Source: a virus (lineage: Duplodnaviria > Heunggongvirae > Uroviricota > Caudoviricetes). Taken from it: a stretch of DNA of 64,000 bases. Where the stretch lies: the IMG/VR virus record IMGVR_UViG_3300042554_002438; one strand, 5' to 3'. The notes under the pieces are model-generated. The model made no database searches and had not been told where the DNA came from. It saw only the letters and a program-made list of their open reading frames with translations. Shown here one piece after another: positions 6,469 to 44,960 of this stretch (its first letter is position 1; the number at the start of each line of letters is the position of its first letter). A program made the position numbers and the translations under genes.

Positions 6469-7920
6469 TTAAATTTTAATCTTTATGTTTTCGATAATTA
6501 AATCACCAGTGTGAATACCGTTATGTTTATAAATTTCAACATGGTATCTGTTAGATGAGTTGACCTCAAATTCAAATTGCATTGTTGGTCTACCGTCAGC
6601 GTTGAGTGTTCTACAACAACCCTTTTCACAAGACTCACCAGGCATTTTATGATCGGCTCCGAAGAAAGACATATAACCCGCGAAGCTCTCAACCATATTC
6701 GGGTGTGCTGTTGTTAATTTATTTCGATTAACGTAAACCTCATAGACACCTTTAGGTATCTTCGTGAATGAAACGGTTAATACTAATTTAACTCTATTTG
6801 GCGCACCTAGCTGGCCACTTGTTGGCGTAACCTGTGTGACAGCATCTGTGATTTGACCATTAATTGGTATGCTGAAATTATTGCTATGTAAAACATTGTT
6901 GTATGCTCTAGCCATCATCGGTTGATCAGCTTTTTCATATACCTCAACATCATCATAATCATAATCAAGTTTGTATATTATCTTTATCACATCTTCCATT
7001 GTATAGGTAACTTTCTTACCATTCTCATCGAAGAAAACATAAGACCAGTCAGCTGATTTTAACATCTCCAATGTAACTTTCTCCCCATTCGGAGAATTAG
7101 TCCATTGCTGCCATAGTCTATCAATGTTTGAGTGATGTGTCCAGAAAACTGGATCAAACCCAGCTGTCGGAACCCAACCCATCAACCCTGTCTCACTAAT
7201 TTTACCAGTGATTGGGTTGTTGAACAACTTACCAGTTTGTACATTACCAGCGCCGATGTAATCGTGCATCGCACCATGTGGGGCATTGTTAATCTGCGAG
7301 TTAAACATTTCGTATGAGGTGTAACTCATTAATTTATCTGTCTCCAAAGCTCTTTGGATTTCACCTGCAATAGGATAACCATAGTTCAAGCTATCAAATC
7401 TACAACGTTCATATAGGGATGATTTCGGATCTCTGAATTTTTCTTGTAAAAATTTGTCGTAGTCAAAATTATTTGTGTAGCCCCAATAAGGTAATGCGAA
7501 ATCTTTATATCCAGACAATTTTCTAACTATCTTTTCTAAATGGTGAATGTATAATCTATGCCAAACCAAGAAATGAATTTTTTCTTTACCACTTGGTGTA
7601 TGTGTACAATTATCCCAAGCTTCTTTTAAATCGGCTGGGGTCTTATAGCTTGGGCACAGTGGGTTATATAAGATTGTGTCGGGAACCCAATGAATTGCAC
7701 CTTGATAATACCAACTCAATGGGTTATCACAAGGCATATTACGCATAATTTTAAAGGCTTTGTCCATGGCTTCAACGTCCATTTGTGCCTCTGGTGTGTG
7801 AATTTCTTTTCGGAGATATCGTTTTCCAACAACATCTCCAACGCTTTCGGTTCTGTCTTTACATGATATTAGCCATAATAGGCCAAACATCAAAATGAAT
7901 AGTATTAATATTTTTTTCAT
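6469..7920 (-). CDS. tyrosinase (type-3 copper oxidase), secreted/lipoprotein
   Basis: CuA signature HFLVWHRLYIHHLE and CuB signature DPVFWTHHSNIDRLW; N-terminal signal peptide ending LISC. Confidence 0.75.
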   Translation of the reverse strand: MKKILILFILMFGLLWLISCKDRTESVGDVVGKRYLRKEIHTPEAQMDVEAMDKAFKIMRNMPCDNPLSWYYQGAIHWVPDTILYNPLCPSYKTPADLKEAWDNCTHTPSGKEKIHFLVWHRLYIHHLEKIVRKLSGYKDFALPYWGYTNNFDYDKFLQEKFRDPKSSLYERCRFDSLNYGYPIAGEIQRALETDKLMSYTSYEMFNSQINNAPHGAMHDYIGAGNVQTGKLFNNPITGKISETGLMGWVPTAGFDPVFWTHHSNIDRLWQQWTNSPNGEKVTLEMLKSADWSYVFFDENGKKVTYTMEDVIKIIYKLDYDYDDVEVYEKADQPMMARAYNNVLHSNNFSIPINGQITDAVTQVTPTSGQLGAPNRVKLVLTVSFTKIPKGVYEVYVNRNKLTTAHPNMVESFAGYMSFFGADHKMPGESCEKGCCRTLNADGRPTMQFEFEVNSSNRYHVEIYKHNGIHTGDLIIENIKIKI

Positions 7921-10081: not shown

Positions 10082-10298
10082 CTTCTTTTTTAATATCCTC
10101 TCGAGTTAATTCTTTTTCAGCTTGGTGCATGAAGATAATCTCTTTTGTTTGTTCATCAACTGTGCAAGCGGCAATTGGTTTATCAACTCGGTAATGATAT
10201 TCTTCTCCTAGCATACCAACTTCTCCGTTGACAACTTCAAAGGCATCAAACTCCTCTGGTAGGGTGTTGAGCCACGTTTTTAATTCTCCTAAATTCAT
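10068..10298 (-). CDS. hypothetical protein
   Basis: 76 aa ORF. Confidence 0.4.
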   Translation of the reverse strand: MNLGELKTWLNTLPEEFDAFEVVNGEVGMLGEEYHYRVDKPIAACTVDEQTKEIIFMHQAEKELTREDIKKEDGKD

Positions 10299-11320
10299 AT
10301 ATCGTAAGGTGTTGTACTGAATGTTATCTTCTCGATACTCAAACAGTTTGTGTTTATTATTTTTTCGATAAACATAATAAAATCAGAAACAATATCAAAT
10401 GATTTTATTTGTTTGTTCAGGTATAGGTTGTAAACCCCAATTTCTTGAAGAACATCTGATTTATTGATTATTAAATCAGTCACACCGTTGATGTTAATTG
10501 CTTTGATCATATCGTCCAAGTCCAACCAATCAACTTGCCTCGGTCTACCAGTTGTTGCACCAAACTCATTACCAACTTCTCTTATCTTCACAAACAATGG
10601 GTCTGCACCTTCAAAGTTTTTGGCACCAACATATGTGCGATAAGCTTTTGCAACGCCGTACACTCTGTCAATTTTTTGTGCTGGTATTCCATTAAGGATG
10701 GCCCCACCAATTGTGCAATGTGATGATGTAACATATGGGTAATCACCCCAATCAATATCCAACTCAAAACCCTGAGCCCCTTCGCAAAGTATACTACAAC
10801 CGTCTTGCCCATTAAATAATCCGTATGTATCAACAACCATGTCGGCTAACATAGGAACATCAACAGCTCTAAGACCTTTTCGATAATACTTATCTCGGTA
10901 AGCTGGGCCATTCCCAGTTTTAGTCGTACCGATTTTACTATCCAAACTATCTTCGTGTAGATGTTGCTCGGTGATGATGTGAACACGTTTATCAATCAAT
11001 AAGTTCTCACGAACTTTAAATCCAGCTAATTCGAGTTCATCAATTTCTTGAATAAGTTTGTCTGGGTTGACCACACAACCAAGTCCAATAATTGATTTGA
11101 TTCCATACAATACACCAACTGGTATGAAATGTGTTACATATTTTTCACCATTGTGATATATCGTGTGACCAGCATTACCACCACCATTGTAGCGCATAAC
11201 ATAATCATACTCATCTGGCTTCTTAGCCAGAGCGTGGGCAACCTTGCCCTTTCCAGTGTCACCCGCTTGCAGGTCAACAATTACATCAGCTTTGCGTATC
11301 ATAGTGCGTGGTTTTCCCAA
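10295..11320 (-). CDS. purA: adenylosuccinate synthetase (short form)
   Basis: LQAGDTGKGKVAH P-loop and GGGNAGHT motif, as in PurA. Confidence 0.8.
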   Translation of the reverse strand: MGKPRTMIRKADVIVDLQAGDTGKGKVAHALAKKPDEYDYVMRYNGGGNAGHTIYHNGEKYVTHFIPVGVLYGIKSIIGLGCVVNPDKLIQEIDELELAGFKVRENLLIDKRVHIITEQHLHEDSLDSKIGTTKTGNGPAYRDKYYRKGLRAVDVPMLADMVVDTYGLFNGQDGCSILCEGAQGFELDIDWGDYPYVTSSHCTIGGAILNGIPAQKIDRVYGVAKAYRTYVGAKNFEGADPLFVKIREVGNEFGATTGRPRQVDWLDLDDMIKAININGVTDLIINKSDVLQEIGVYNLYLNKQIKSFDIVSDFIMFIEKIINTNCLSIEKITFSTTPYDI

Positions 11321-11809: not shown

Positions 11810-13672
11810 TTATTTTACCTCGGTTACAGTACCCTGTTCAGATTCTTTTTTCTCTTGGATTTGCTTTAACAATTCCATTCCAAGTAAGCCATTGATTGGG
11901 CTACTATCACCACTACCTGTGATAAGAATCTCAGGGATGATTTTGATACCATTTGTACCAATCATTTCGGTAACTTTAAGTTTACCAAAGTTTTCAACAC
12001 CCATAGCTTTAACTTGCTTTTCGTAAGCCTCAGCAGTTGATTTACCAATCGCGGAAATCTTAGATGCTTCAGCATCACCAGTCAATTTAATCTGCGTAGC
12101 ATCAGCTTCAGCGTTCAATTTCTTAGCTTCAGCTTGAGCGGCAGCTTTTAATTTCAAGGCTTGTGCTTCACCCTCAGATTTCTTAACAGCGGCCTCAGCT
12201 TCACGTTGAGAAATCTCAACCGATTGTTGTGCTGACACCATTTGTCCTTGCATATCGGCAAGTGCTTTAGCCGATTCAAGCGTCTTACGTTTATCTTGAG
12301 CTTTGCGTTGAGTGTCAAATGTTACCTCTTCTTCTTGTGCAATCTTACGGTCAGTAAGAGTTTTCATCAGAGAGTCTGGTGGTGTGATGTCACCAATAAG
12401 CGTATCAACCGCATGCACGTTGTATTCTTCAAGAACCGTGCTGATCTTATCTTTAGCAGCATTCTGTCTTTGTTGACGAGTTGATAAGAACGCAATCACA
12501 TCAGAATCTTGTGCCGAGTTACGGAAATAGTTACCGATGGTTGGTTCAAGAACTTGTGACACAAGGTTCTGCATTGAGCCGAAACGAGCAATTACTTTAG
12601 GCGCTTCGGTTGATGGGATGTGGATAATCTGTGAAACATCCAAATTGAATGGGAAACCGTCTTGTGAACGTACTGTGATGGTACTCAAGTTCTTATCAAG
12701 ATTGTGTGATTCATTACGAGCATTTGCCCAGTTAAGAACCAAGTTTGTTGTTGGTACTATCTCAATCTTCTGTGTATAAGGATTGATTGCGTATTTACCT
12801 GGATCCAATGGGGTTGCCCACACACCTTTCTGACCTTTTTTAACGATGTTACCGTGTTTAAAATCACTTCCAGTGGTGTCTTCACCATCTTCACCAACAT
12901 AAGAGATAACAACACCAACATGACCGATAGGAATGGATGTCATTTCTTTCTTCTCAACTTCGATTGCCCATGGGTTCAATGAATAAGAACCAGCTTGAAT
13001 AACTTGGATTTGTAAACCCCTTTGTCCACCATTAGCCAAAAACTTATCAAAGTCTTGGAAATTATTGTGACCGCTAACCACAGAACCAGCGATTGAACCA
13101 ATCTCAAGTGGTGTACCATCAAGTGCTGTAACAACGCCAACCATACCATCTTCAATGTATGTGATGTCAGCGAGGAATATCTCGAATAAATGGGTATTAA
13201 CACGATACACACCGTTGTTTAAATAACCAACTTGTTTACCACGTTGTCCACCTGTTGATAAAAACGCTCTAGCATCTTGGTAATCATCACAATCAACGTG
13301 TCGAGCCAAGATAGCACCCTTTGGTAACTGTGCGCCATCTTTAGCTGATAACAAGCCGATCTTACCTTTAGGTATTGTTGTTAAAGGGGCTTGTTCGATT
13401 TCGAATTGCCATATCCAGTAAGCCCAATATAAACCTGGGGCTAATGTGTCGGCCTGAAAGCCTGGTTCATTGTTTAAGGCGATAATCTTACCATCGGGTA
13501 ATTGTTTATTGGGGCCAAAAAGTACAAATTTTTTGGTCACCAAACCAATTTTGTCTTCAGGTATGATAACCATACCAAAGAACACTCGTAGTACGAACTT
13601 GTAGAATACTACCATGAGGATCGGGATTAAAACCCATGCGTAACCCAATACGCTAGTTAATTGTTCTGTCAT
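11810..13672 (-). CDS. SPFH/band-7 (flotillin-like) membrane protein
   Basis: N-terminal TM helix, SPFH core and a long Ala/Lys/Glu-rich coiled-coil C-terminus, as in flotillins. Confidence 0.7.
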   Translation of the reverse strand: MTEQLTSVLGYAWVLIPILMVVFYKFVLRVFFGMVIIPEDKIGLVTKKFVLFGPNKQLPDGKIIALNNEPGFQADTLAPGLYWAYWIWQFEIEQAPLTTIPKGKIGLLSAKDGAQLPKGAILARHVDCDDYQDARAFLSTGGQRGKQVGYLNNGVYRVNTHLFEIFLADITYIEDGMVGVVTALDGTPLEIGSIAGSVVSGHNNFQDFDKFLANGGQRGLQIQVIQAGSYSLNPWAIEVEKKEMTSIPIGHVGVVISYVGEDGEDTTGSDFKHGNIVKKGQKGVWATPLDPGKYAINPYTQKIEIVPTTNLVLNWANARNESHNLDKNLSTITVRSQDGFPFNLDVSQIIHIPSTEAPKVIARFGSMQNLVSQVLEPTIGNYFRNSAQDSDVIAFLSTRQQRQNAAKDKISTVLEEYNVHAVDTLIGDITPPDSLMKTLTDRKIAQEEEVTFDTQRKAQDKRKTLESAKALADMQGQMVSAQQSVEISQREAEAAVKKSEGEAQALKLKAAAQAEAKKLNAEADATQIKLTGDAEASKISAIGKSTAEAYEKQVKAMGVENFGKLKVTEMIGTNGIKIIPEILITGSGDSSPINGLLGMELLKQIQEKKESEQGTVTEVK

Positions 13673-13997: not shown

Positions 13998-15527
13998 TTA
14001 TAATTTATTTAAACGTTCACGAATTTCAGTTAATGTTGTTTGGTTGTGGAACTTACCATCTTCATAAATGGTTTGTAAGATTCCAGTTCCCTCTTGCTCC
14101 CAAGTACATTGAGTTAATACCTCATGGTCTTCAGTTACACAGATCAAACCTTTCAAAGATTTCTTGGTACCATCATCAGTTACTGGATCTTTGTAGATGT
14201 TGTAACCAACCTTTCCTTTTGGAATTAAAGCACTTCCCAAAAGTCCATCGGCTGAAGGTATAGTATCAAACTCCTCAACTTCAAACCAAGCACCTTTGGC
14301 TGCGAAACCTAAAGTGTCACGGGTATTCATTTGGTAAGTAAATGAACCAACACCCAATACAATGTTTGTTGCCGCAAATCCTTTTGCTTCCAATCTCTTG
14401 TAGATTTCAATTTGACGGTCTAATGTGATTGAATCTCCGTAGATTGCTCCGATGTGTGGGTCAAGAACCTTGTAACCTTGTTCATTGATTGTTCCACCAA
14501 AGATGTCCCAAAGTAATTCTATTACCCCGACTTCAGCAGGTGTTTTATACTCACCAGGCGCATCGGATAATTGTTCTTCTCTACCACAAATAATATCAAC
14601 TGGATCACCAGAGTCAGGACGAATTACTAACTTACCGTCACGAGCCATGATAGCTTCTTTGTTTGCTGGTAAGTATTCAGTAATCAACTTCCACAAATCA
14701 AATGTGTCAGATACAATTGATAGGATTCCATTCGGAAAATCTACCAACCAATCGGCAATCATTTGTTGTTCACCAACAGTAAAGATTTTTGTTGTTGATA
14801 CAGAGTGTTCAGATGCGTTAACCGAGTTAATGCACACTTCGTCTTTTGGTTCATTATAGAAATAACGAGCCCCTGGAATACAGATGATTGTATCTGAACC
14901 ACGGAACGATGTTGCATGTCCCATTCCACTAGTCAACATATCCCATGGTGATAAACCACGTGCTGAAAAGTCATGACACATAAAAGGAATTAACCAAGCT
15001 GTTGATGGGTCGGTTTTCATAACCCACTCAACAACATTACGTTTGTATTGCAATGCTATTGTTGCTGATGTGGATGGTTTCCAAGCCAACGAACTGATAA
15101 TTGTTTCCAAATACAATGTCAACCACGCAAACCCATCGACAGTATTGATGAAAGTCATGTGTGGAACATTTGGGTTTGTTTCAATACCTTCAGGTAGTGC
15201 TTTAACACGAATAGGTAAGTAACCTAATCTGTGTAGTGCAACGAAGTGTGATGCATCGTAATCCATTCCAAGATACAATGACATATCTTTTCCAAAGTTA
15301 ACCGCAACTTCCTCGGGTAAACTGAAAAAGTTCTCTTGAAATTCATCATGTAACCATTTAACAACCAATTGTTGTCCGAATGAAACGATTTTTGACACGC
15401 CTTTAGGTGCATACTTAACACTACGTGGAATCCATGTGCCGTACAAACGGGTGGTTCCAGGAGCTAACATTTTCTTGTGACCGATCTTATATCCGTCAGT
15501 GTAAAATAAACTTGTTGGTTTGAACAT
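13998..15527 (-). CDS. nadV: nicotinamide phosphoribosyltransferase (NAMPT/NadV)
   Basis: 509 aa; typical NAMPT start MFKPTSLFYTDGYKIGHKKM and family-wide similarity. Confidence 0.85.
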   Translation of the reverse strand: MFKPTSLFYTDGYKIGHKKMLAPGTTRLYGTWIPRSVKYAPKGVSKIVSFGQQLVVKWLHDEFQENFFSLPEEVAVNFGKDMSLYLGMDYDASHFVALHRLGYLPIRVKALPEGIETNPNVPHMTFINTVDGFAWLTLYLETIISSLAWKPSTSATIALQYKRNVVEWVMKTDPSTAWLIPFMCHDFSARGLSPWDMLTSGMGHATSFRGSDTIICIPGARYFYNEPKDEVCINSVNASEHSVSTTKIFTVGEQQMIADWLVDFPNGILSIVSDTFDLWKLITEYLPANKEAIMARDGKLVIRPDSGDPVDIICGREEQLSDAPGEYKTPAEVGVIELLWDIFGGTINEQGYKVLDPHIGAIYGDSITLDRQIEIYKRLEAKGFAATNIVLGVGSFTYQMNTRDTLGFAAKGAWFEVEEFDTIPSADGLLGSALIPKGKVGYNIYKDPVTDDGTKKSLKGLICVTEDHEVLTQCTWEQEGTGILQTIYEDGKFHNQTTLTEIRERLNKL

Positions 15528-15546
15528 AATAATTATTATTTTGGGG

Positions 15547-16518
15547 TTAAAATACGTTTAATTGTTTAACTAATGAGTGAATTGTTTTGTGCCTTGAAAG
15601 CGTGTCAACGATAGTTCCGTCTTGAACATCCTTCACACTATTTGTTGTGTAGATACCATCAAAATATTCACTTAGGAAATCAAACCCAGCGCTGAAGATG
15701 CCATGAGTAACTATCAAATAGTTTTTACCGTGGTGTTTTGGGTGAACAGTACTTGATATTTTTCTGGCATCATTGACAGCTTTAGCGATTTCAATGAATG
15801 TTCTACCACCATCGCAGATGTCATCAATAATGAAAATATCTTTGTCGGCATCGTTTACTGAAATTGGTACGTTAGTGTAATCAATCTTACCAGTTTCAAT
15901 ATTACGATGTTTTGATGCGATGATAACTTCATGTCTATATTTGAGTTGTTCAGCACAATGAAACACTTTTTTCAAAGCACCAGCATCGGGTGATACTAAA
16001 CGTACACCATCGAAATTCATGGAGTCCCAAATTTCAAATCCTTTTGATAAAAAGTAATCTTTAAATGCGAAATAAAGTAAAACGGTATTGTCCCGTTTCT
16101 CAAAGTTATTGATGCATGCCTCAAGAACATCTGAGTGTGGGTCAAGGACTGTTACCTTTTCGTAACCCTGTGAGTTAATGATTGGTGCGATTACGTTCTT
16201 AACATAATTGATACCACCTTCCGTAAACTTACGGTCGCTTCTAGCACCCATACAATAAGGAATGTAAAGACGAATACGATTAACACCAACCTCTTTTAAC
16301 GCTTGTGTTGCACAGATAATAATTTCCAAATCCTGGAATGTATTTAAACGAGATTTGATTGTTATACCTTGCGAATTATCTTTAAGTGAACAAAAGGTAT
16401 TGTATCCATTTTCAACCAATCTCAATGATTGTTGTCCATCGGGAAAACGACTAATCTCATATTTGAATGATAGCTTATCGTTATCGTTATGGTTAACTAA
16501 ATTTAAAAGTTCCGCCAT
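15547..16518 (-). CDS. prs: ribose-phosphate pyrophosphokinase (PRPP synthetase)
   Basis: 323 aa with PRPP-binding motifs (DDICDGGRT, DAGALKK). Confidence 0.8.
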   Translation of the reverse strand: MAELLNLVNHNDNDKLSFKYEISRFPDGQQSLRLVENGYNTFCSLKDNSQGITIKSRLNTFQDLEIIICATQALKEVGVNRIRLYIPYCMGARSDRKFTEGGINYVKNVIAPIINSQGYEKVTVLDPHSDVLEACINNFEKRDNTVLLYFAFKDYFLSKGFEIWDSMNFDGVRLVSPDAGALKKVFHCAEQLKYRHEVIIASKHRNIETGKIDYTNVPISVNDADKDIFIIDDICDGGRTFIEIAKAVNDARKISSTVHPKHHGKNYLIVTHGIFSAGFDFLSEYFDGIYTTNSVKDVQDGTIVDTLSRHKTIHSLVKQLNVF

Positions 16519-16537
16519 TTTTTTATTTTCTTTAAAT

Positions 16538-16578
16538 GTTGTACAAAGATAAGTTAAAATTTTTAAACCACCAAATTA
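16538..16578 (-). promoter_or_regulatory. promoter-like motif copy
   Basis: tgttgtacaaagataagttaaaatttttaaaccaccaaatt upstream of the prs start. Confidence 0.45.
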
Positions 16579-17085
16579 TTTAATTTTTCCAATGATATCC
16601 AACATTCTTTCGAGTTGTGGATTCTTGTGGGCTGTGGACTCATTTAAATTTGAAGTGCCCTTGGAGATGTTAACTGGTGCTATGTTCGCACCGCTACTGA
16701 GTAAGTCTTGTAATTCACTATCCGATAATTTTTCAGCATCTATTTCTACAAATGTACGTGGGTCATACCTTCTACCACGAAAAGATATTGGTCTATCGTA
16801 AGACTGTTGATATGCTGTACTTGCGAATGGCATCATGGACGTCCCATTATTACCAATAGTTTCAGATCTAACCATGGTTGTTGCCCCAGTTAAAATATCA
16901 CCACTAGTGCCAGTTTTTTTACTTATGAACTCCTGTGACGCAGCGCTAGTTTGCTTTGGGTTATTGTTCTTTATTTTTATCGCAGATACAGTTTCGTGAT
17001 TTATAGTTGCACTCGAACTCTTGGGTTCGCCAGTTTGATTTATCAACTTGATAAATTTTGCAAGTAATCTAAAAAGAATATTCAT
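16576..17085 (-). CDS. hypothetical low-complexity protein
   Basis: 169 aa, Ser/Thr/Asn-rich. Confidence 0.4.
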   Translation of the reverse strand: MNILFRLLAKFIKLINQTGEPKSSSATINHETVSAIKIKNNNPKQTSAASQEFISKKTGTSGDILTGATTMVRSETIGNNGTSMMPFASTAYQQSYDRPISFRGRRYDPRTFVEIDAEKLSDSELQDLLSSGANIAPVNISKGTSNLNESTAHKNPQLERMLDIIGKIK

Positions 17086-17193
17086 TTAATCTCTATCAAA
17101 AAATGTTGTAAATACCGATAAAATAAAAATACAAACGACAATACCAATAACTATTATCGCTGTGACTTGAGCTGCTGGGTGTAAACTTTCCAT
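17086..17193 (-). CDS. possible 35-aa single-TM peptide
   Basis: ATG at 17193; MESLHPAAQVTAIIVIGIVVCIFILSVFTTFFDRD; abuts the upstream gene; below the ORF-track length cutoff. Confidence 0.25.
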   Translation of the reverse strand: MESLHPAAQVTAIIVIGIVVCIFILSVFTTFFDRD

Positions 17194-17205
17194 ATTATTA
17201 ATTTT

Positions 17206-17760
17206 TTAATTATCAAACCAAACTATCATTCTAGAAACATAACCATTTTCCTCAAAGGTTTTCATGGCCGATAGCAAAACCACATACTCAATAGGTGCAC
17301 CAAAATCATACTCAGATGATGAGCAATATTTAGTGTAGCGATTGATTGCGGTTTCAAATTCTTTTGTGGTTAACCAAGTGTGTGAGTGCCAATCAGGATG
17401 TTCGACCCAACAAGGTTTATCATTTCTGTCCTTGATTATTTTAAGACGACCACTCTCAGCCCATCTCATCGCAGTTTCTAATGTAACGCTATTCTCAGAT
17501 GGCGAATCACTTATGTAACAAACAGAATCGTTCCTCGAATAGTAACCAAGTTCCTCAAATGGTGGTAATCCTTTAGGTAATAATCCATTTTTATGATTGG
17601 ATCTAACACCCTGTGAGATAAAGCCAAACATATCATAGTTTCTACCTGGATTAATGGCACCAGCAAAATCACGCCAATATGCTGGTTTACCAGTTTTTTT
17701 AGCTTCTTTTAATTCTTCTTTTGTGGTGTACTCAAGGTACATATGAATATCACATCCCAT
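17206..17760 (-). CDS. hypothetical protein
   Basis: 184 aa ORF. Confidence 0.45.
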   Translation of the reverse strand: MGCDIHMYLEYTTKEELKEAKKTGKPAYWRDFAGAINPGRNYDMFGFISQGVRSNHKNGLLPKGLPPFEELGYYSRNDSVCYISDSPSENSVTLETAMRWAESGRLKIIKDRNDKPCWVEHPDWHSHTWLTTKEFETAINRYTKYCSSSEYDFGAPIEYVVLLSAMKTFEENGYVSRMIVWFDN

Positions 17761-17775
17761 ATTATTTTCTATTAG

Positions 17776-17849
17776 TGGGCCCTGCTGGGTTCGAACCAGC
17801 GACCACCTGATTATGAGTCAGACGCTCTAACCGACTGAGCTAAGGGCCC
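17776..17849 (-). tRNA. tRNA-Met (anticodon CAT)
   Basis: hand-folded cloverleaf: GGGCCCT acceptor, GCTC/GAGC D-stem, CTCATAA anticodon loop, TTCGAAC T-loop; no encoded CCA. Confidence 0.8.
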
Positions 17850-17879
17850 TAATTTTATACAAAGATAGTAATTAATTTT

Positions 17880-18383
17880 TTATTTTCCAAATCCAGTATC
17901 GGTAAAAAATCTGAGCGTCTCGGCCATAAATGTATTTGTATCAAAATTTGGGTCGAATGTTAAATTATCATCCACAATAATATTATCATCCTCATCAACT
18001 TTATATTGGTACATTTCAAAACTGTTTGGGGTAGTTTTTATAGGATCAACTTTAATAATATCACCCTCAAATTGAACCCCACATAGTTCACAAAAATGTA
18101 CAACTTTATAACTATTCGTATCAGGCATTGGGATTAGAATGTCTTTATGTGTTAAACTCATCGCCTTTGAACCATCTTCATTTGTGTGATTGCAACTCAA
18201 TTTTATCTCATAAATTTGTTTTTCATACGAAGTTATGTGATTATTTTTCGATTCGATTAAAATATCAACTTTTTTCTTGAGCTCTCGTTCAATGGAGTTT
18301 AGATCTCGAGTAACCTTTTCTTTATTAATCTCAAGTTCGATTATTTTTTTACGGCCCTCTATAAACGGATTCTTTGATTCCAT
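17880..18383 (-). CDS. hypothetical protein
   Basis: 167 aa with a possible C-x-x-C zinc ribbon. Confidence 0.45.
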   Translation of the reverse strand: MESKNPFIEGRKKIIELEINKEKVTRDLNSIERELKKKVDILIESKNNHITSYEKQIYEIKLSCNHTNEDGSKAMSLTHKDILIPMPDTNSYKVVHFCELCGVQFEGDIIKVDPIKTTPNSFEMYQYKVDEDDNIIVDDNLTFDPNFDTNTFMAETLRFFTDTGFGK

Positions 18384-18388
18384 AAAGA

Positions 18389-18823
18389 TTAACCATTTGT
18401 ATTTTTTAATTCTAATTCATAATATTTTACCATCAGAGATGCGCTGGCATAATTGGTGGCAAGTGGTATGTTATGTACATTACATATCCTCAAAAGCATG
18501 CTCACATCCACCTGATGTGGGTGGGCTTCAAGTGGGTCGATGAAAAAAACAACACCGTCAATTTTACCGTTAACAATCATAGATGCTATCTCCGCATCAC
18601 CACCGTAAGGCCCAGAGTTTAACTTGGTTACATTCGTCAAACCAGCGTGTTCAACGTGTTTACCTGTGGTTCCAGTAGCATATATGTTTACGTTGTTTTT
18701 AAAGAAATCGAGACGTTTCATAATGAATGAGACCATATCCGCTTTCTTACCATCATGTGCGATAATAGCAACATTAAGTTTTTTCCGATTCTCTTTGTCA
18801 GCTAAAAATTTATTCAACAACAT
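18389..18823 (-). CDS. mgsA: methylglyoxal synthase
   Basis: IAIIAHDGKK...YATGTTG...GPYGGDAEIASMIVNGKIDGVVFFIDPLEAHPHQVDV...NIPLATN aligns along its length to E. coli MgsA. Confidence 0.8.
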   Translation of the reverse strand: MLLNKFLADKENRKKLNVAIIAHDGKKADMVSFIMKRLDFFKNNVNIYATGTTGKHVEHAGLTNVTKLNSGPYGGDAEIASMIVNGKIDGVVFFIDPLEAHPHQVDVSMLLRICNVHNIPLATNYASASLMVKYYELELKNTNG

Positions 18824-18825
18824 AA

Positions 18826-19347
18826 TTAAAATTTAATTCTAAGACCCATTTTTTGCATAGCCAATAATGCCTCGGCGTTACCCATAGCATCATCAACGGG
18901 ATTGTGAGTATGTTTTGTTTTTCTATACAAACGTTTCCACTCCTGGTTCTTACTAGCATCCTTAACCAAACCACAATACAAATCACCGATACGTCTGCCA
19001 GAAAACCCGAATGGGTTTCTACCGCAGTACTTATGCATGTACCAGTTAATCCACTGCCAATCAAAGGCTAAGTTATCGCTGATAAAGGTTGGTTTACCTT
19101 CGGAATTTTTAACTAACCATTTTTCGAACTCGCTCATAACCTCATATGGTTCCCCAAACTGTTCATGCTCAGACCTTGAAAACCCACTGACAGCTAACGC
19201 ATCTGGTTTGTATTGATCAGTTAATGGTCTGATCTTACCATAAAACGTTTTTGATGTGTCGGACACTTTAACAACACCGAAACATACAATTGAATGTGTA
19301 CCAACTAATTCACCATCAGCCTCAACATCCACTACAAAATAACTCAT
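18826..19347 (-). CDS. DEDDh 3'-5' exonuclease (DnaQ-like)
   Basis: VVDVEADGE Exo I motif and HNPVDDAMGNAE Exo III motif. Confidence 0.55.
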   Translation of the reverse strand: MSYFVVDVEADGELVGTHSIVCFGVVKVSDTSKTFYGKIRPLTDQYKPDALAVSGFSRSEHEQFGEPYEVMSEFEKWLVKNSEGKPTFISDNLAFDWQWINWYMHKYCGRNPFGFSGRRIGDLYCGLVKDASKNQEWKRLYRKTKHTHNPVDDAMGNAEALLAMQKMGLRIKF

Positions 19348-19778
19348 ATCTTTACTAATTTTTTAATTTCTCTGTCAATATCGCGCTTTTTAATTGTCTC
19401 GCGTTTATCGTAATTCTTTTTACCCCTAGCAATAGCGATTCTACATTTTATCTTACCAGAACCATTCAAGTAAAACCAAAACGGAACGATTGTTAAACCT
19501 TTTGTCAAACTGTTCTGAATCTTTCGGATTTCTGTTCTGTGTAAAAGTAATTTTTTATCACGATTCTCATCATGACCAAAAAATTCGCTATTTGTGGTTA
19601 TTTTAAAATTTTTGATGAACATTTCGTCATCCTTGATATAGCAAAACGCATCAACTATGCTAATTTTACCATCCTTAATTGCTTTAACTTCAGAGCCAAA
19701 AAGAATAATACCAGCCTCATACTCTTGAAGGTATTCATAATCAAATTTTGCTTTTCTATTTGTAACTAAAGTTTTCAC
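19344..19778 (-). CDS. smpB: SsrA-binding protein SmpB
   Basis: NRKAKFDYEYLQEYEAGIILFGSEVKAIKDGKISIVDAF...KLLLHRTEIRK...IARGKKNYDKRETIKKRD collinear with E. coli SmpB. Confidence 0.85.
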   Translation of the reverse strand: MKTLVTNRKAKFDYEYLQEYEAGIILFGSEVKAIKDGKISIVDAFCYIKDDEMFIKNFKITTNSEFFGHDENRDKKLLLHRTEIRKIQNSLTKGLTIVPFWFYLNGSGKIKCRIAIARGKKNYDKRETIKKRDIDREIKKLVKI

Positions 19779-19811
19779 AATACAAATATAGTAAATGATT
19801 TGAATAAAAAC

Positions 19812-19840
19812 AAAAAAACCCCGTAATTTTTTACGGGGTT
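19812..19840 (-). terminator. rho-independent terminator (minus strand)
   Basis: ccccgtaattttttacgggg hairpin with a flanking A-run on plus (T-run on minus), downstream of the ferritin-like gene. Confidence 0.6.
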
Positions 19841-19864
19841 TAGTTTATTCGATGATACGCTCGA

Positions 19865-20500
19865 TTAAAAGTAAGTTTGTTCGAAATACAATACTTCAAA
19901 TTTGTTCTCTTCGTTAATTAATTCAATTGCATTAATTAAATCATTATATTCAACGACAGATTCTTTTTGACCAGTTCTATAAGTTTGTAAGAAATCAAAT
20001 GTAGTTAAGTCATTCCCGAATAGTTTTGAAGATGTTGTGTTGTACTTCATCATCAAACCTAACTCTAACTTATAAGCTTCTCTAACTATCTCACATAATC
20101 CAGAGAAAGTTCTCTTAGTATCAACTGATGGTATAGTTGGGATAATATTAAATCCAACCATATACTCTTGTAACCCTTTAGCGTGTACTAATTCGGTATC
20201 AGCCTCAGCGTCAAAGAAAGCGCCAGCTTTTTTATAGTTTCTATCGTGACACCAGTTAGCGGCGTTTCTATAAAAATAATGGGCTTCATATTCATCGGCA
20301 ATTCTACTAGTCAATTCAGCGACAGTTTCGCCAGGTAAGTTATACAACATTTGGCCCTCATCTTCCATCGGTTCAACGGAAACAGCAACGGGGGTGACAT
20401 CTTCAGCATCTGGTGTCATTGTAACCTCAGCCTCAGGTAATTTATTATCCCTTGCAATGTTCATAATCTTACTTTTCATTTCTTCTTTTGTAACATTCAT
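19865..20500 (-). CDS. ferritin-like protein
   Basis: EYEAHYFYRNAANWC...AEADTELVHAKGLQE resembles ferritin di-iron helices; about 60-aa N-terminal extension. Confidence 0.45.
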   Translation of the reverse strand: MNVTKEEMKSKIMNIARDNKLPEAEVTMTPDAEDVTPVAVSVEPMEDEGQMLYNLPGETVAELTSRIADEYEAHYFYRNAANWCHDRNYKKAGAFFDAEADTELVHAKGLQEYMVGFNIIPTIPSVDTKRTFSGLCEIVREAYKLELGLMMKYNTTSSKLFGNDLTTFDFLQTYRTGQKESVVEYNDLINAIELINEENKFEVLYFEQTYF

Positions 20501-20545
20501 GATTAAATCTTTTACATAAATAGTTTGATTTTATAATAAATCCCC

Positions 20546-21325
20546 TTACAAATCATTAAATAACTTGATCATATCCGAGATATCAACAACACCCTTTTTC
20601 TGAATCACATGAGTTGCACATTCGTTTGCAAAGAAAATGCTAGTCTCAACATGCCTTGTTTTAATTAACGCAGCGGTGAACGCGGCGATAAAAGTATCAC
20701 CAGCCCCAGCCACATCCCTAACATCAACCTTTTTTGTTGGATAGTTATTGCCATTAAGGTCACAACCATCACCACCTTTAGTGATTAATAATTTATTACT
20801 TATCTTATTGATAACGTTATTATTATGCGCTGGGTTCTTACTTTCTGAATGATTAACTTTGATATATGTTGCATTAGTTATCCACGACCCGAAAGGTTTC
20901 TTAGTGTCAACTGTCGATATGTTGCTATTCGCTATGATATACTCAATCATCTCTGTCGTTAAAAATCCCTTGTCGTAATCGGATATAATAACAGCATCAT
21001 AGTTAGCAAACTCAACGCTTGATATTTTACTGAAAACCAGCGGTTCAACAACATCACCATCATCAACTCTCAATAAAATGTAATTGGATTTCTCATCTAC
21101 ATAACGAGTCTTAACCATGTTTGTTTCTTGGTAAATAAAATCAACATCAATACCCAATGATTTTAAATTAGCAACAACATTACCAGCCATACCTGGATTA
21201 GTTTTGGTATCGATTGGTTTAAATACTGGTGTGGGGGCTTCTGGGTTTAACCTGGAACACTCTCCATAGATAAATTTATCTATACAAATTTCACCGATAA
21301 CTAAAATTTTCATATTAAATAACAA
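20546..21325 (-). CDS. PfkB-family sugar/nucleoside kinase (ribokinase-like)
   Basis: GAGDTFIAAFTAAL PfkB C-terminal signature and GG anion-hole motif. Confidence 0.7.
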   Translation of the reverse strand: MLFNMKILVIGEICIDKFIYGECSRLNPEAPTPVFKPIDTKTNPGMAGNVVANLKSLGIDVDFIYQETNMVKTRYVDEKSNYILLRVDDGDVVEPLVFSKISSVEFANYDAVIISDYDKGFLTTEMIEYIIANSNISTVDTKKPFGSWITNATYIKVNHSESKNPAHNNNVINKISNKLLITKGGDGCDLNGNNYPTKKVDVRDVAGAGDTFIAAFTAALIKTRHVETSIFFANECATHVIQKKGVVDISDMIKLFNDL

Positions 21326-22529: not shown

Positions 22530-23138
22530 TTATATTAGATGTTTCAATATTTTTTCTTTAATACCAGATTGTTTTATACCCTCGAAATCTCTAGGCGTCC
22601 AGACAAAATTTTCTAAACCCCAATCGCGATCAAATGGGCCATATGAACTATTCTCAACATGTATACCCATGTGTAAATCATCAACAGCGACCCAATGAGT
22701 AACTTCTGGATGATCTCTTAACCAACGAAGGATTTCAAAATGTCTTTCTTGCTCCCTATCAGAGGTTCGAGTCCACGGAAAATCGTTATGGTCAGGGACA
22801 AACCCTTCCTCTAACCAATTTGTAAAATGAAACACCTCTGTTCCATCAATTGGTCTTTTAATAATACCTTTAGATTCATAGTAGTCACCTAATTCTTCAA
22901 TTGTCGCGTGTAATCGCCAATCGGAACTAACAACAATTTCAGCGCCAGTTTCTTCAAGTATTTCATTGAGCACTTTAACAGCTTTATCGTCAAAATTATC
23001 GAACCTATATTCAACAGGAATCTCTTTCGAGGTCATGGACAACTTTCTACCACCCCACTTTTCTTGTTTTTTGTATCGACTACCCCAATTGTTTGACAAA
23101 CAAATGACCCCGTCATTATCTAAAAATATAACTTTCAT
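22530..23138 (-). CDS. HAD-superfamily phosphatase (paralog 1)
   Basis: MKVIFLDNDGVI motif I (DxDGV) and VVSSDWR motif II. Confidence 0.55.
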   Translation of the reverse strand: MKVIFLDNDGVICLSNNWGSRYKKQEKWGGRKLSMTSKEIPVEYRFDNFDDKAVKVLNEILEETGAEIVVSSDWRLHATIEELGDYYESKGIIKRPIDGTEVFHFTNWLEEGFVPDHNDFPWTRTSDREQERHFEILRWLRDHPEVTHWVAVDDLHMGIHVENSSYGPFDRDWGLENFVWTPRDFEGIKQSGIKEKILKHLI

Positions 23139-23139
23139 C

Positions 23140-23712
23140 TTAATAATTTAAATCAATGATATCTTTTTCCAACATTGCTTTTGCAATTTCATAGTAATGT
23201 TGGTTAAACCCATCTTTATTTCTTGGTGATGGTAATACATGCACAAAATGATTACGTTGCCCGTAAAGCATATCAGAATCATCATCTATGATGATATAGT
23301 TTTCAACACCAGACTTATCCATGTACTCTTGCTGTACAACTTCATCCCAATTAATATGGTGGAATTGTAGATCGTTATTTAGGTAATACTCTATCTCCAT
23401 TCCTCGCGGAATTGAATAACCTTTGGCTCTCATACTAGGCGTGATGCCAATGATTTTACCTGCCATCTCTTCCATCTCCCAAACCTTTCTCATAAAGTCT
23501 ATACCACCGTGTCTCCAGGTTGAACTAACGACAATTTCGGCGCCAGTTTCAAGAATTAATTTGTTCATTAACTCTTTACTCCAAGAGCAAAATGTTTGAT
23601 AATGATCTTTGCGGCCATCTTCCCAAACCCATTCTTTGTATTGACACTCACCACTTCGATAAGCATTCTCGCAGTTCAACACACCGTCTATGTCAAGGAA
23701 TATTACTTTCAT
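23140..23712 (-). CDS. HAD-superfamily phosphatase (paralog 2)
   Basis: MKVIFLDIDGVL and VVSSTWR; tandem paralog of the preceding gene. Confidence 0.55.
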   Translation of the reverse strand: MKVIFLDIDGVLNCENAYRSGECQYKEWVWEDGRKDHYQTFCSWSKELMNKLILETGAEIVVSSTWRHGGIDFMRKVWEMEEMAGKIIGITPSMRAKGYSIPRGMEIEYYLNNDLQFHHINWDEVVQQEYMDKSGVENYIIIDDDSDMLYGQRNHFVHVLPSPRNKDGFNQHYYEIAKAMLEKDIIDLNY

Positions 23713-30704: not shown

Positions 30705-31286
30705 TTATTGATTAATGTTGAAGGCTCGATCATATGCCCCATCTAGTATAATCTTTTTATGGAGTTTCATTGTTATTTCAGCATCATATAAAGCATTATG
30801 TTGACCACCATTCTTATCCAAGCCAAGTATTAGGTGCCTATTTTTTTTAGGATCGTGATACCAAATCTTTAAAACTGTTGCCATATCATATGGTTGATAT
30901 CCGTTAAAATTATTTGGTAATTTTCTGGACGGTTCTCCCATAAAATATAAATCCATGAATAAAACCCAATCAAAAGCTAAAGTATCACCCCAAAACTCAA
31001 TATCCTTAAATTGTTTTAACCAAGTAACTAAAGCATCTGATATTGTTTGTTTATCTTGTTTTATGGTGAAGGATTTATTCTCCTCGTCATTTTCAAAAAA
31101 ATGAACGTATTCGGAATATGTGAGCTTGGGTATAACATTATCTTTAATCCATTGGTCACATTGTGATTCATCGTAGTCATTAAATTCAGCGTAAAATTTA
31201 TGACCATTTTCTGTTATCATCCCTAAAGAAATGGGTGTGGTTGCTTTATGCAAACCAGTAAATTCAAAATCAAAAAATATTCTCAT
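30705..31286 (-). CDS. DEDDh 3'-5' exonuclease
   Basis: FFDFEFTGL Exo I motif and HNALYDAEIT Exo III motif. Confidence 0.65.
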   Translation of the reverse strand: MRIFFDFEFTGLHKATTPISLGMITENGHKFYAEFNDYDESQCDQWIKDNVIPKLTYSEYVHFFENDEENKSFTIKQDKQTISDALVTWLKQFKDIEFWGDTLAFDWVLFMDLYFMGEPSRKLPNNFNGYQPYDMATVLKIWYHDPKKNRHLILGLDKNGGQHNALYDAEITMKLHKKIILDGAYDRAFNINQ

Positions 31287-42621: not shown

Positions 42622-42681
42622 ACTTCTTTATTTTATTATAAATAGTATGAGATAAATAAAAGTAATAAAAAATTAGATTTG

Positions 42682-42752
42682 AGCTGGTAGTTGGAATCGA
42701 ACCAATCTCTATAAGTTTTGCAGACTTATTGCACTCCATGTACATTACCAGC
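42682..42752 (-). tRNA. tRNA-Cys (GCA)
   Basis: hand fold: GCTGGTA/TACCAGC acceptor, TAAGT-CTGCAAA-ACTTA anticodon arm, TTCGATT T-loop; short D-loop. Confidence 0.65.
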
Positions 42753-42759
42753 ATATTAG

Positions 42760-42830
42760 CACGGGTGGAAGGATTCGAACCTCCATCGCTGGTTTTGGAG
42801 ACCAGCATTCTACCATTGAAATACACCCGT
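42760..42830 (-). tRNA. tRNA-Trp (CCA)
   Basis: ACGGGTG/CACCCGT acceptor, CTGGT-CTCCAAA-ACCAG anticodon arm. Confidence 0.7.
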
Positions 42831-42837
42831 ATATTGT

Positions 42838-42989
42838 GGACACAGTGGGAATCGAACCCAAACGATCTCCTTGCAAGGGAGTCGACCTGCCTTCGGTATC
42901 TGGCCCATATGGCGGAGAGCGGAGTACTCGAAACTCATACCCGAAAGTACCACTCGCTTAGCAGGCGGTGACAGCACCCTGGCTGTGTC
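42838..42989 (-). ncRNA. atypical 152-nt tRNA-like RNA (acceptor helix and T-arm but a non-canonical core)
   Basis: 3' TGGG-TTCGATT-CCCA T-arm followed by CTGTGTC; the exact complement GACACAG lies 152 nt upstream; an internal ACTCC-CTTGCAA-GGAGA hairpin and GGTACT/AGTACT hairpin; no standard D-arm. Confidence 0.35.
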
Positions 42990-43001
42990 ACTCTCCATTT
43001 G

Positions 43002-43077
43002 TCGGGAAAGCTGGATTCGAACCAGCGATCTCTCGCGTCCAAGGCGAGCGAGGATGACCTGACTCCTCCATTTCCCG
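43002..43077 (-). tRNA. tRNA-Pro (TGG)
   Basis: CGGGAAA/TTTCCCG acceptor, CTCGC-CTTGGAC-GCGAG anticodon arm, GCTGG-TTCGAAT-CCAGC T-arm. Confidence 0.65.
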
Positions 43078-43082
43078 TTTTG

Positions 43083-43155
43083 TAGGGTAGACAGGGTTCG
43101 AACCTGCGACCCCGTGCTCCCAAAGCACGTGCGCTACCAACTGCGCTACTACCCT
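43083..43155 (-). tRNA. tRNA, anticodon TGG (second Pro-like)
   Basis: AGGGTAG/CTACCCT acceptor, GCGC D-stem, CGTGC-TTTGGGA-GCACG anticodon arm. Confidence 0.55.
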
Positions 43156-43162
43156 ATGTTTG

Positions 43163-43248
43163 TCGGAGTGGAGGGATTCGAACCCCCTGAGTTTCCAATG
43201 TGCCAGATTTACAGTCTGGTGCCCATCCGCCGTCTGAGCAGCACTCCG
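43163..43248 (-). tRNA. tRNA-Tyr (GTA), class II
   Basis: CGGAGTG/CACTCCG acceptor, CCAGA-CTGTAAA-TCTGG anticodon arm, 15-nt variable arm (bacterial type). Confidence 0.75.
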
Positions 43249-43261
43249 AAATGATATAAAA

Positions 43262-43288
43262 CAAAAAACCCTGAGATTTTGTCCCAGG
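43262..43288 (-). terminator. rho-independent terminator (minus strand) upstream of the tRNA array
   Basis: A-run then ccctgagattttgtcccaggg hairpin; followed on plus by the conserved GGGCTTCTACTAT. Confidence 0.55.
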
Positions 43289-43460
43289 GCTTCTACTATT
43301 TTATATAATTAGTTTCCAAAAAAAATCGTTAACTAAAAGACAATAGAAGCCCTGTTCCAGCTGGATATGCTGGAGCTGCTGGACAACTATACGGCCATGC
43401 CACGATATTTTTGTTCAAATTTTTCATTTTGTCTTTATAAATAGTGTGTTCTTTTAAAAA

Positions 43461-43505
43461 GTGATACAAATATAAGCACAGTTTTTTAAATAAGCAAGTT
43501 TTTTT
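43461..43505 (-). promoter_or_regulatory. promoter-like motif copy
   Basis: gtgatacaaatataagcacagttttttaaataagcaagttttttt. Confidence 0.4.
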
Positions 43506-43528
43506 AAAAATTAATCATAAATTTCTGT

Positions 43529-43572: not shown

Positions 43573-43593
43573 CCAGGCGCTTACCACTCACAA

Positions 43594-43668: not shown

Positions 43669-43682
43669 CGCCATGTAATCCC

Positions 43683-44956: not shown

Positions 44957-44960
44957 AACA

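Follow-up and report, generated by a model that had tools for sequence, protein, structure and literature searches.

The closest described system is NARP1, a phage-borne two-gene operon known from SPbetaL1, Bas63, FADO and ICP1 (Osterman et al. 2024; PMC12774641; PMC13586617). The genes are ordered Adps then Namat. Adps forms ADPR-PP from ADP-ribose (ADPR) and ATP, and Namat forms NAD+ from ADPR-PP and nicotinamide, bypassing PRPP and NMN and requiring no NMNAT (10.1101/2024.02.11.579819). A variant, NARP1-AP, has the arrangement Adps-Adpp-Namat, in which Adpp is a Poa1p-like Macro phosphatase (10.64898/2026.01.28.702374). NARP2, consisting of the NadV Nampt and the NatV Nmnat/Nudix protein in KVP40, has the same overall role, with a Nampt-fold enzyme that is a homolog of Namat.

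The window, the whole stretch of 64 kb that was analyzed, presumably belongs to the much larger genome of an uncultured large phage. A gene pair on its minus strand (16518-13998) is very probably a NARP1 operon that would rebuild NAD+ from ADP-ribose and nicotinamide. The first gene, adps (15547..16518), encodes a 323-aa PRPS-like protein that is best read as an ADP-ribose pyrophosphokinase. The second, namat (13998..15527), encodes a 509-aa Nampt-like protein that is best read as a nicotinamide ADP-ribose transferase. Between the adps stop and the namat start lie 19 bp of AT-rich sequence (15528..15546, read directly from the sequence). No site turned up between adps and namat in a terminator scan, and the two are presumably co-transcribed. 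An earlier note had called them prs and nadV and had joined them with a PfkB-family kinase gene (20546..21325) into a pathway from ribose and nicotinamide to NMN. All three open reading frames are present at these coordinates, on the minus strand throughout. The note's general idea, that a phage module replenishes the NAD+ which Thoeris, DSR or Sir2-type defenses have depleted, is supported, but its chemistry is not, as the pair matches Adps and Namat and not Prs and Nampt.

The direct evidence for NARP1 consists of homology, clade assignment, diagnostic motifs, gene order and the conservation of that order in relatives. By analogy with the characterized homologs of SPbetaL1, Bas63, FADO and ICP1, we infer the enzyme activities and the anti-defense phenotype of the pair. 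A host defense (for example Thoeris type I, DSR1/2, SIR2-HerA or SEFIR) would cut NAD+ into ADP-ribose and nicotinamide. Adps would then convert ADPR and ATP to ADPR-PP, and Namat would exchange the pyrophosphate of ADPR-PP for nicotinamide, giving NAD+ directly. PRPP, NMN, NMNAT and a ribokinase would play no part in this route. The locus would be an ordinary further example of an already known anti-defense pathway.

The 323-aa protein is related to PRPP synthetases but falls below every curated Prs cut-off. It matches phrog_619, annotated as ribose-phosphate pyrophosphokinase, with an E value of 1e-59, and its matches to Pfam Prs domains are weak and under the cut-off. With the Prs profile TIGR01251 (cut-off 113) it scores 91.5 bits, compared to 98 for ICP1 Adps, 119 for Bas61 Adps, 73 for the Lbo-JY46 protein and 423 for E. 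coli Prs; the range for the Adps that are known or operon-linked, three in all, is 70-119 bits. The opposite ranking comes from a profile of three Adps that are known or operon-linked, with 159.5 bits for the window protein and 80.3 for E. coli Prs. Similarly, in blastp the protein reaches 127 bits with Bas61 Adps, 104 with ICP1 Adps and 58 with E. coli Prs, and the best Prs match in the PDB reaches only 45 bits. The protein is placed in the Adps clade by pairwise scores, profiles and motifs, which are proxies for a clade.

The active-site motifs also point to Adps. ICP1 Adps has a remodeled PP loop (C215-S220), followed by an F221 lid, with which it binds the ATP donor; its catalytic beta-hairpin lysine is K185 (K162 in SPbetaL1), and adenine is contacted by F18, R87 and F92 (PMC13586617). 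The window protein has the PP loop DDICDGGRTF, identical to the loop in Bas61 Adps, and DDICDG[GA]RTF is kept in all of its close relatives. E. coli Prs has DDMIDTGGTL at this position, so that C235-D-G-G-R-T240 followed by F241 stands where the E. coli enzyme has I-D-T-G-G-T-L. K203 aligns with K185 of ICP1 Adps, which is biochemically verified, and F25, R93 and F98 align with the three adenine contacts. Among these four residues F98 alone discriminates Adps from Prs (Val in E. coli), as the lysine and the equivalents of F18 and R87 are also found in Prs. Further residues conserved with ICP1 Adps are H128, D178, D232, D233 and D236. Adps are further marked by loss of the C-terminal alpha11-alpha12 module and the regulatory elements of Prs. 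Like other Adps, the window protein lacks the 8-residue Prs insert that follows the T-H-x-I-F-S motif, but it ends in a C-terminal tail of its own.

A true phage PRPP synthetase, raising purine, pyrimidine and NAD precursor pools for replication and unrelated to defense, is very improbable. Such a role would fit the nearby genes of nucleotide metabolism, which include a PurA-like gene (10295-11302) and a DHFR gene within the first 12 kb of the window, and it would fit the retention of R93, H128, D178, K203, D232, D233 and D236, which are shared with Prs. The motif and profile evidence speaks against it, and SPbetaL1 Adps formed no PRPP when purified (10.1101/2024.02.11.579819). In addition, all relatives pair the gene strictly with one of the Namat type, which NARP1 predicts and a general PRPP role leaves unexplained.

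The 509-aa protein groups with Adps-associated Namats and not with Nmnat-associated Nampts. The general annotations are a match to the Pfam family NAPRTase (PF04095, E value 2.9e-29) and a match to phrog_448, nicotinamide phosphoribosyl transferase (E value 1e-155). In the PDB, the crystallized SPbetaL1 Namat (9w5x/9w5w) scores 382 bits, while human and bacterial Nampts score 131-152. By blastp, five verified or operon-linked Namats score 303-361 bits, among them those of SPbetaL1 (361), ICP1 (345) and Bas61 (303). The T4-like phage Nampts are more distant at 28-29% identity, with 144 bits for that of Vibrio phage QD01 and 108 for NadV of Aeromonas phage 25. The Nampt-like catalytic core is intact (D11, Y13, F187, R190, D212, H241, R303 and D305), corresponding to D13, Y15, F189, R192, D215, the catalytic His, R306 and D308 in SPbetaL1 Namat (PMC12774641).

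Two selectivity-clamp elements, the SCL loop and the SCH motif, characterize Namats; the window protein has the first, and the second with one deviation. The SCL loop is long in Namats, with Arg, Lys or Tyr at its third position plus a stacking residue (PMC12774641). In the window protein it is PRSVKYAPKG (aa 34-43), in which K38 aligns with R40 of SPbetaL1 and is followed by Y39. The same arrangement of Lys and then an aromatic residue is found in ICP1, Staphylococcus phage 812 and Lbo-JY46, and in Nampts this loop has 4-5 residues fewer. The SCH motif has the consensus GS-X-Phi-X-Phi-X-Phi-TRD (PMC12774641). The window sequence GSFTYQMNTRD (aa 394-404) fits it at 10 of the 11 positions, including the Phe at position 3 (F396), while Nampts, including the T4-like phage enzymes, have GGGLLQ(Q/M)(L/V)(D/N)RD there.

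The exception is position 7 of the SCH motif, where the window has Met400 in place of the consensus aromatic residue (Tyr or Phe). The corresponding residue of SPbetaL1 Namat, Y396, touches adenine (PMC12774641). Tyr stands here (GSFTYQYNTRD) in Lbo-JY46 and in each of the 11 related sequences covering the motif. Met400 is unique among the relatives examined, where every other sequence has Tyr or Phe; one Nampt, NadV of Aeromonas phage 25, also has an aligned Met. This could indicate a decaying or shifted NARP1, in which the change from Tyr to Met loosens Namat toward PRPP and NMN chemistry or cuts its activity, and of the explanations considered this is the least probable. Both reading frames are intact, all catalytic residues are kept, as are the ten remaining positions of the motif, and the clamp elements F396 and K38-Y39 are still present. 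Single clamp mutations in SPbetaL1 Namat reduced activity only about 1.3- to 1.7-fold, and loss required double mutants (PMC12774641). Since these single mutants lost little, Met400 probably weakens the preference for ADPR-PP and does not abolish it.

The window operon is a divergent form of NARP1. Its Adps is 35% identical to those of ICP1 and Bas61, and its Namat is 42-44% identical to those of SPbetaL1 and ICP1. It belongs to a subclade that includes Leptolyngbya phage Lbo-JY46 (43% identity for Adps and 70% for Namat) and uncultured viral contigs. The window Adps has insertions that ICP1 Adps lacks and a C-terminal tail of about 35 residues, which is common to Lbo-JY46 and has no counterpart in ICP1 Adps. 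The Namat is extended by about 19 inserted residues in a loop that matches the disordered beta14-beta15 loop.

No gene for the last step of an NMN pathway was found in the window. Open reading frames of about 75 aa or more had no match to cytidylyltransferase/NMNAT (PF01467), NUDIX (PF00293) or Macro domains, and tblastn of the window with a cyanophage cytidylyltransferase gave no match. This agrees with the earlier note, which had recognized no NMNAT and suggested that the pathway may be completed elsewhere or by the host. The absence is not a gap if the pair is NARP1, because NARP1 goes from ADPR, ATP and nicotinamide straight to NAD+ and needs no NMNAT. The older scheme resembles NARP2: the PfkB protein as a ribokinase would supply ribose-5-phosphate, Prs would supply PRPP and Nampt would supply NMN. 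The generic annotations fit it, as the 509-aa protein matches PF04095 and NF006629 and the 323-aa protein matches phrog_619 and resembles TIGR01251 members. Namats also form some NMN from PRPP in vitro (10.1101/2024.02.11.579819; PMC12774641), and an NMNAT could sit in the presumably much larger genome outside the 64 kb seen. Nevertheless such a salvage pathway is improbable. Identical annotations proved experimentally wrong for the NARP1 genes, NARP1 and NARP2 occur together in no phage in the source study, and the clade of Nmnat-associated Nampts is without Adps (10.1101/2024.02.11.579819). The 323-aa protein misses the Prs cut-offs and has the Adps PP loop, Namat is a much nearer match to the 509-aa protein than the T4-like phage Nampts are, and the window has an Adps gene and no Nmnat or Nudix gene. 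With the two genes read as NARP1, a minor side route to NMN through Namat is possible by analogy with the in vitro activity.

The PfkB gene has no role in the NAD+-rebuilding pathway. Starting at TTG, the reading frame gives 259 aa and matches Pfam PfkB (PF00294) with an E value of 1.2e-23; the ATG at 21313, giving 255 aa, is the likelier start. The earlier note took the protein for a ribokinase-like enzyme, and this is rejected: its best profile is TIGR02198 (rfaE_dom_I) at 145 bits, short of the curated cut-off of 345, while the ribokinase model TIGR02152 gives 44.9 bits where 299.65 are required. NF008353 scores 30.5 against 341, in the C-terminal ATP-site region only. The best PDB match is HldA (4e84). 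The protein shares the N-terminal motif I/VGE..D.....R..PEAP.PV and the catalytic motif GAGD with HldA and HldE (RfaE) domain I, the D-glycero-beta-D-manno-heptose-7-phosphate kinase, but is shorter (255-259 aa compared to about 315).

Genome context separates the kinase from the operon as well. Its phage homologs are almost confined to cyanomyophages, and among cyanophages and marine viral contigs its relatives belong to clusters of heptose-nucleotide genes. A cytidylyltransferase gene adjoins the homolog in 12 of 15 related viral loci, usually with GmhA-like and nucleotidyltransferase genes, and heptose partner genes are also beside the homolog in Synechococcus phage Sf-CH8. None of these viral loci has Adps or Namat. 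Conversely, none of 14 contigs with close relatives of the window Adps has the PfkB gene, and the syntenic contig L057 lacks it between the HAD and ferritin genes. In the window the gene lies 4 kb upstream of the adps-namat pair, with eight unrelated genes between them. A terminator-like hairpin (19816..19841, an 11-bp stem and a T-run on the minus strand) divides the ferritin/PfkB unit from the stretch running from SmpB to NARP1, although this is a consensus match from the terminator scan and not evidence of function. Membership of the kinase in a NARP1 module is likewise rejected, as it is unlinked in relatives and the hairpin lies between. Of the heptose-pathway partners GmhA, GmhB and an adenylyltransferase, none is found in the window, and the protein is probably an active HldA/RfaE-domain-I-like kinase of the heptose-phosphate type that has lost its usual partners. 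The earlier note had named beforehand an unrelated PfkB kinase together with no NMNAT as the outcome that refutes its proposal, and this is what the 64-kb window contains, the rest of the genome lying outside the scope of the analysis. What it refutes is the three-gene NMN pathway; the proposed role of the pair in rebuilding NAD+ is unaffected.

In all 13 related IMG/VR viral loci with enough sequence, Namat comes after Adps and lies on the same strand. In the published study, 97% of Adps-clade genes have a Namat neighbor within 10 genes (10.1101/2024.02.11.579819). Among phage records, 1056 have an Adps-like match and 2025 have a Namat/Nampt-like match. Some close relatives (L009 and L014) have a Macro-like gene directly after Adps, resembling NARP1-AP, with which the window shares the core Adps and Namat genes. 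The window differs in having only 19 bp at this position and no Macro-domain gene, and tblastn of the window with the Macro-like proteins of these two relatives gave no match. Lacking Adpp, the operon is predicted to be sensitive to aRES-type defenses that produce ADPR-1''-phosphate.

A conserved neighbor of the NARP1 genes within this phage clade is orf184 (17206..17760, minus strand), a member of the MGCDIH...NPGRNY...HPDWHSH...WFDN family. Its homologs occur without NARP1 genes in five contigs (L044, L046-L048 and L050), and they adjoin Adps or Namat in others (L010-L013, L039, L057 and the contig of P0062). It is possibly an accessory gene of NARP1, though the link is unproven.

The motifs, scores, and gene order of the Adps-Namat pair suggest with high probability that this uncultured large phage carries a divergent new example of NARP1, a known anti-defense pathway. 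Every ORF between 11.8 and 24.3 kb is on the minus strand, and the three that the earlier note assigned to an NAD+ salvage module were confirmed: adps (15547-16518, minus strand, 323 aa; called prs in that note), namat (13998-15527, minus strand, 509 aa; called nadV), and a PfkB gene (20546-21325, minus strand; 259 aa from a TTG start or 255 aa from the ATG at 21313; PF00294, 1.2e-23). Adps matches the phage "ribose-phosphate pyrophosphokinase" family phrog_619 (1e-59), and its Pfam Prs domains are weak and below the cut-off. Namat belongs to the NAPRTase/Nampt family (PF04095, 2.9e-29; phrog_448, 1e-155). The spacer between the two genes is 19 bp, and a terminator scan found no terminator-like sites between them.

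A two-gene phage operon annotated as Prs plus Nampt has exactly this arrangement, and its products were shown not to make PRPP and NMN (Osterman et al., bioRxiv 10.1101/2024.02.11.579819). The Prs-like enzyme, Adps, converts ADP-ribose to ADPR-PP by pyrophosphorylation, and the Nampt-like enzyme, Namat, combines ADPR-PP with nicotinamide to form NAD+; host NMN-utilizing enzymes are not required. NARP1 is found in about 4.3% of phages and counters Thoeris I, DSR1/2, SIR2-HerA, and SEFIR. NARP2 consists of a separate Nampt clade (type KVP40) plus Nmnat, and no phage in the same study had both pathways (10.1101/2024.02.11.579819). Diagnostic structural features have been described for Namat (PMC12774641) and Adps (PMC13586617). 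Since two clades of such proteins are known, the question is to which clade the proteins of the window belong.

The first protein has the features of Adps. It was aligned with the biochemically verified Adps of ICP1, Adps of the BASEL phage Bas61, the Prs-like protein of Leptolyngbya phage Lbo-JY46, and E. coli Prs. The catalytic lysine (K203, equivalent to ICP1 K185), the residues contacting the adenine of ADPR (F25, R93, and F98, equivalent to ICP1 F18, R87, and F92), and the acceptor residues H128, D178, D232, D233, and D236 are all kept. The donor-binding PP loop, DDICDGGRTF, is identical in Bas61 Adps and of the same type as that of ICP1 (DDICDGAASF), whereas in E. coli and archaeal Prs it reads DD(M/I)I(D/S)TGGT. 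The eight-residue insert that follows the THxIFS motif in Prs is absent, as it is from other Adps proteins. With blastp the protein scores 127 bits against Bas61 Adps and 104 against ICP1 Adps, compared to 58 against E. coli Prs; the best solved Prs structure gives 45 bits. Its score with the Prs profile TIGR01251 is 91.5 bits, below the cut-off of 113, while ICP1 Adps scores 98, Bas61 119, Staphylococcus phage 812 gp209 70, Lbo-JY46 73, and E. coli Prs 423 bits. A profile built from three known or operon-linked Adps proteins (ICP1, Bas61, and phage 812) gives 159.5 bits for the window protein versus 80.3 for E. coli Prs.

The second protein groups with Namat. Among solved structures it scores 382 bits against SPbetaL1 Namat (9w5x/9w5w) versus 131-152 against human and bacterial Nampt. 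Blastp scores against Namats are 361 bits (SPbetaL1), 360 (Staphylococcus phage 812), 345 (ICP1), and 303 (Bas61); the Nampt references, both from T4-like phages, score 144 (Vibrio phage QD01, Straboviridae) and 108 (Aeromonas phage 25 NadV). The model NF006629 does not discriminate, as Namat and Nampt both score above its cut-off. The catalytic core is wholly conserved (D11, Y13, F187, R190, D212, H241, R303, D305). The Namat-specific selectivity-clamp helix has the motif GS-X-Phi-X-Phi-X-Phi-TRD (PMC12774641), which appears in the window as GSFTYQMNTRD (aa 394-404), while Nampts have GGGLLQQLDRD or GGGLLQMVNRD at this position. The clamp loop, PRSVKYAPKG, is of the long Namat type; K38 corresponds to SPbetaL1 R40 and precedes Y39, and this order of a lysine and then a stacking residue is the arrangement described for Bas63-type Namats.

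The only deviation from the clamp motif is Met400 at position 7, where Y396 of SPbetaL1 contacts adenine (PMC12774641). The 11 related sequences spanning the motif, like Lbo-JY46, all have a tyrosine here, making the Tyr-to-Met change unique among the relatives examined. The codon (ATG, 15328-15330) is three nucleotide changes away from TAT or TAC. NAD+ synthesis by SPbetaL1 Namat falls only 1.3- to 1.7-fold with single clamp substitutions, and it takes double mutants to produce a severe loss (PMC12774641); Met400 is therefore a caveat and not a refutation. This natural variant at an adenine-contacting position is one small lead from the analysis, and it does not alter the picture of the NARP1 mechanism.

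Gene order in related phages also links Adps with Namat. Megablast of 25 kb of the window against deposited phages found no near-identical phage and no close DNA relative; the sole match was to 340 bp within the Namat gene of Tenacibaculum phages. Scanning IMG/VR yielded 14 loci with an Adps 55-85% identical to that of the window. In each of the 13 loci whose sequence reaches that far, Adps has a Namat homolog downstream of it in the same orientation, at a distance of 14 bp to about 9 kb. Several relatives have additional genes in the gap, coding for a HAD-like protein of ~145 aa, a Macro-like protein similar to Adpp (the phosphatase of the extended pathway NARP1-AP), Nuc_deoxyri_tr2 and SET-domain proteins, or a GIY-YIG-type insertion. 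These genes, together with DUF1937 and ART-PolyVal genes, make up a variable island between or around Adps and Namat in loci L006-L016, L039, L043/L045, and L057. The operon in the window is minimal, with none of the intervening genes. A Band_7/SPFH gene (11810-13672) comes after Namat, as it does in several related contigs. The variable accessory gene set around NARP1 is a second small lead that likewise leaves the mechanism unchanged.

The earlier note was right in its general idea that the pair restores NAD+ against depleting defenses, but the route it proposed, from ribose through PRPP to NMN with an NMNAT supplied elsewhere or by the host, is unsupported. Pfam scans found no cytidylyltransferase-like, NUDIX, or Macro domains in the ~100 ORFs of the window (for the 38-64 kb set, among the best 25 of 28 families, the rest having E > ~9e-5), and tblastn with proteins of the relatives found no hidden NMNAT or Macro gene. 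Since NARP1 yields NAD+ directly, the absence of NMNAT is expected and does not represent a gap. Standard labels are misleading at such loci: a phage "PRPP synthetase" beside a "NAMPT" is to be interpreted as NARP1, a counter-defense that recycles ADPR and is self-contained, and not as incomplete NMN salvage awaiting an NMNAT. The result extends NARP1 to a divergent subclade found in large, tRNA-rich uncultured phages and one cyanobacterial phage.

The PfkB protein, which had been proposed as a ribokinase feeding the pathway, is best read as an orphan sugar-phosphate kinase of the heptose type, and no connection to NAD+ metabolism could be demonstrated. Profile scores, the closest PDB structure, the context of the family, and the absence of co-occurrence led to rejection of the ribokinase role. 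The best curated model is TIGR02198, RfaE domain I (D-glycero-beta-D-manno-heptose-7-phosphate kinase), with 145 bits; the bifunctional HldE model gives 95 bits, and the ribokinase model 45 bits, in the C-terminal ATP-site region alone. The closest solved structure is Burkholderia HldA (4e84), and the match extends to the N-terminal PEAP.PV motif characteristic of the HldA family. An intact GAGD catalytic motif makes it probable that the kinase is active. Homologs occur in 34 of 50,697 phage records, nearly all of them T4-like cyanophages, and in Synechococcus phage Sf-CH8 the neighbors are heptose-1-phosphate adenylyltransferase, phosphoheptose isomerase, a nucleotidyltransferase, a dehydratase, and glycosyltransferases. 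Of 15 related IMG/VR loci, 12 have a cytidylyltransferase gene next to it, most often together with GmhA-like and nucleotidyltransferase genes; Adps and Namat are missing from all of those loci. The 14 relatives with Adps, in turn, all lack a PfkB gene within 10 kb. The syntenic contig L057 has the gene order of the window (HAD, ferritin, SmpB, exonuclease, orf184, NAPRTase-family, Band_7) with no PfkB gene between HAD and ferritin. The ferritin/PfkB unit is separated from the stretch from SmpB to NARP1 by a terminator-like hairpin (19816-19841, 11-bp stem), and heptose-pathway partner genes are absent from the 64-kb window. A nucleotide-sugar modification cluster at 46-63 kb, with two GDP-mannose 4,6-dehydratase/epimerase-type proteins, FkbM and C-methyltransferases, and a carbamoyltransferase, could be the context of this kinase.

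The uncharacterized neighbor orf184 (17206-17760, minus strand) belongs to a family of > 330 uncharacterized proteins widespread in phages, with the motifs MGCDIH, NPGRNY, HPDWHSH, and WFDN. Its invariant Asp and His residues are suggestive of a metal site. The AlphaFold2 model is confident (pLDDT 94, pTM 0.88); the predicted fold had no match in the PDB, and matches in BFVD were to uncharacterized viral proteins only. Homologs adjoin Adps or Namat in several related contigs. One conceivable reading is that orf184 is a new accessory NARP1 enzyme which, like Adpp and RyDEP, would convert another NAD+-derived defense product to ADPR or nicotinamide, and that the island around Adps and Namat is made up of such accessories (HAD-like phosphatase, Macro-like, Nuc_deoxyri_tr2, and ART-PolyVal in the relatives). 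This reading is improbable. Other orf184 homologs have no NARP1 genes nearby, and the contigs with orf184 near NARP1 have a long synteny block in common with the window, suggesting that the association may reflect inherited gene order and not function.

Several other genes of the window deserve mention. A full-length tmRNA gene (53317-53695, minus strand; Rfam RF00023, 78.8 bits, E 6e-29), missed by ARAGORN, and an SmpB gene (19344-19778, minus strand; PF01668, 6e-48) provide both parts of trans-translation. All 27 tRNA genes lie on the minus strand and together cover most amino acids, with one at 17775-17849 and 26 in clusters within 42681-60404; this load is typical of a very large phage. 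A cluster related to RNA repair and tRNA maintenance (21.5-40.6 kb) includes two tandem HAD_SAK_2 genes (22530-23712), RlaP, cREC_REC, an RNA ligase, an Rv2179c-like exoribonuclease (30705-31286), and a CCA-adding/poly(A) polymerase fused to HAD_SAK_1 (38522-40606, plus strand), and a Thg1-like gene is found farther along, within the 38-64 kb ORF set. A dATP/dGTP diphosphohydrolase N-terminal domain match (PF18909, 7e-28) lies within 21.5-38.5 kb. The short adenylosuccinate synthetase homolog (10295-11302, minus strand, 335 aa) was considered as PurZ, a Z-genome marker, and this was rejected because it scores 198 bits against PurA versus 56-71 against PurZ structures. The window also encodes a methylglyoxal synthase homolog, unusual for a phage (18389-18823, minus strand; NF003559, 156.6 bits versus an equivalog cut-off of 84), and a tyrosinase/polyphenol-oxidase-like protein (6469-7920, minus strand; PF00264, 1.5e-26, and PF12142).
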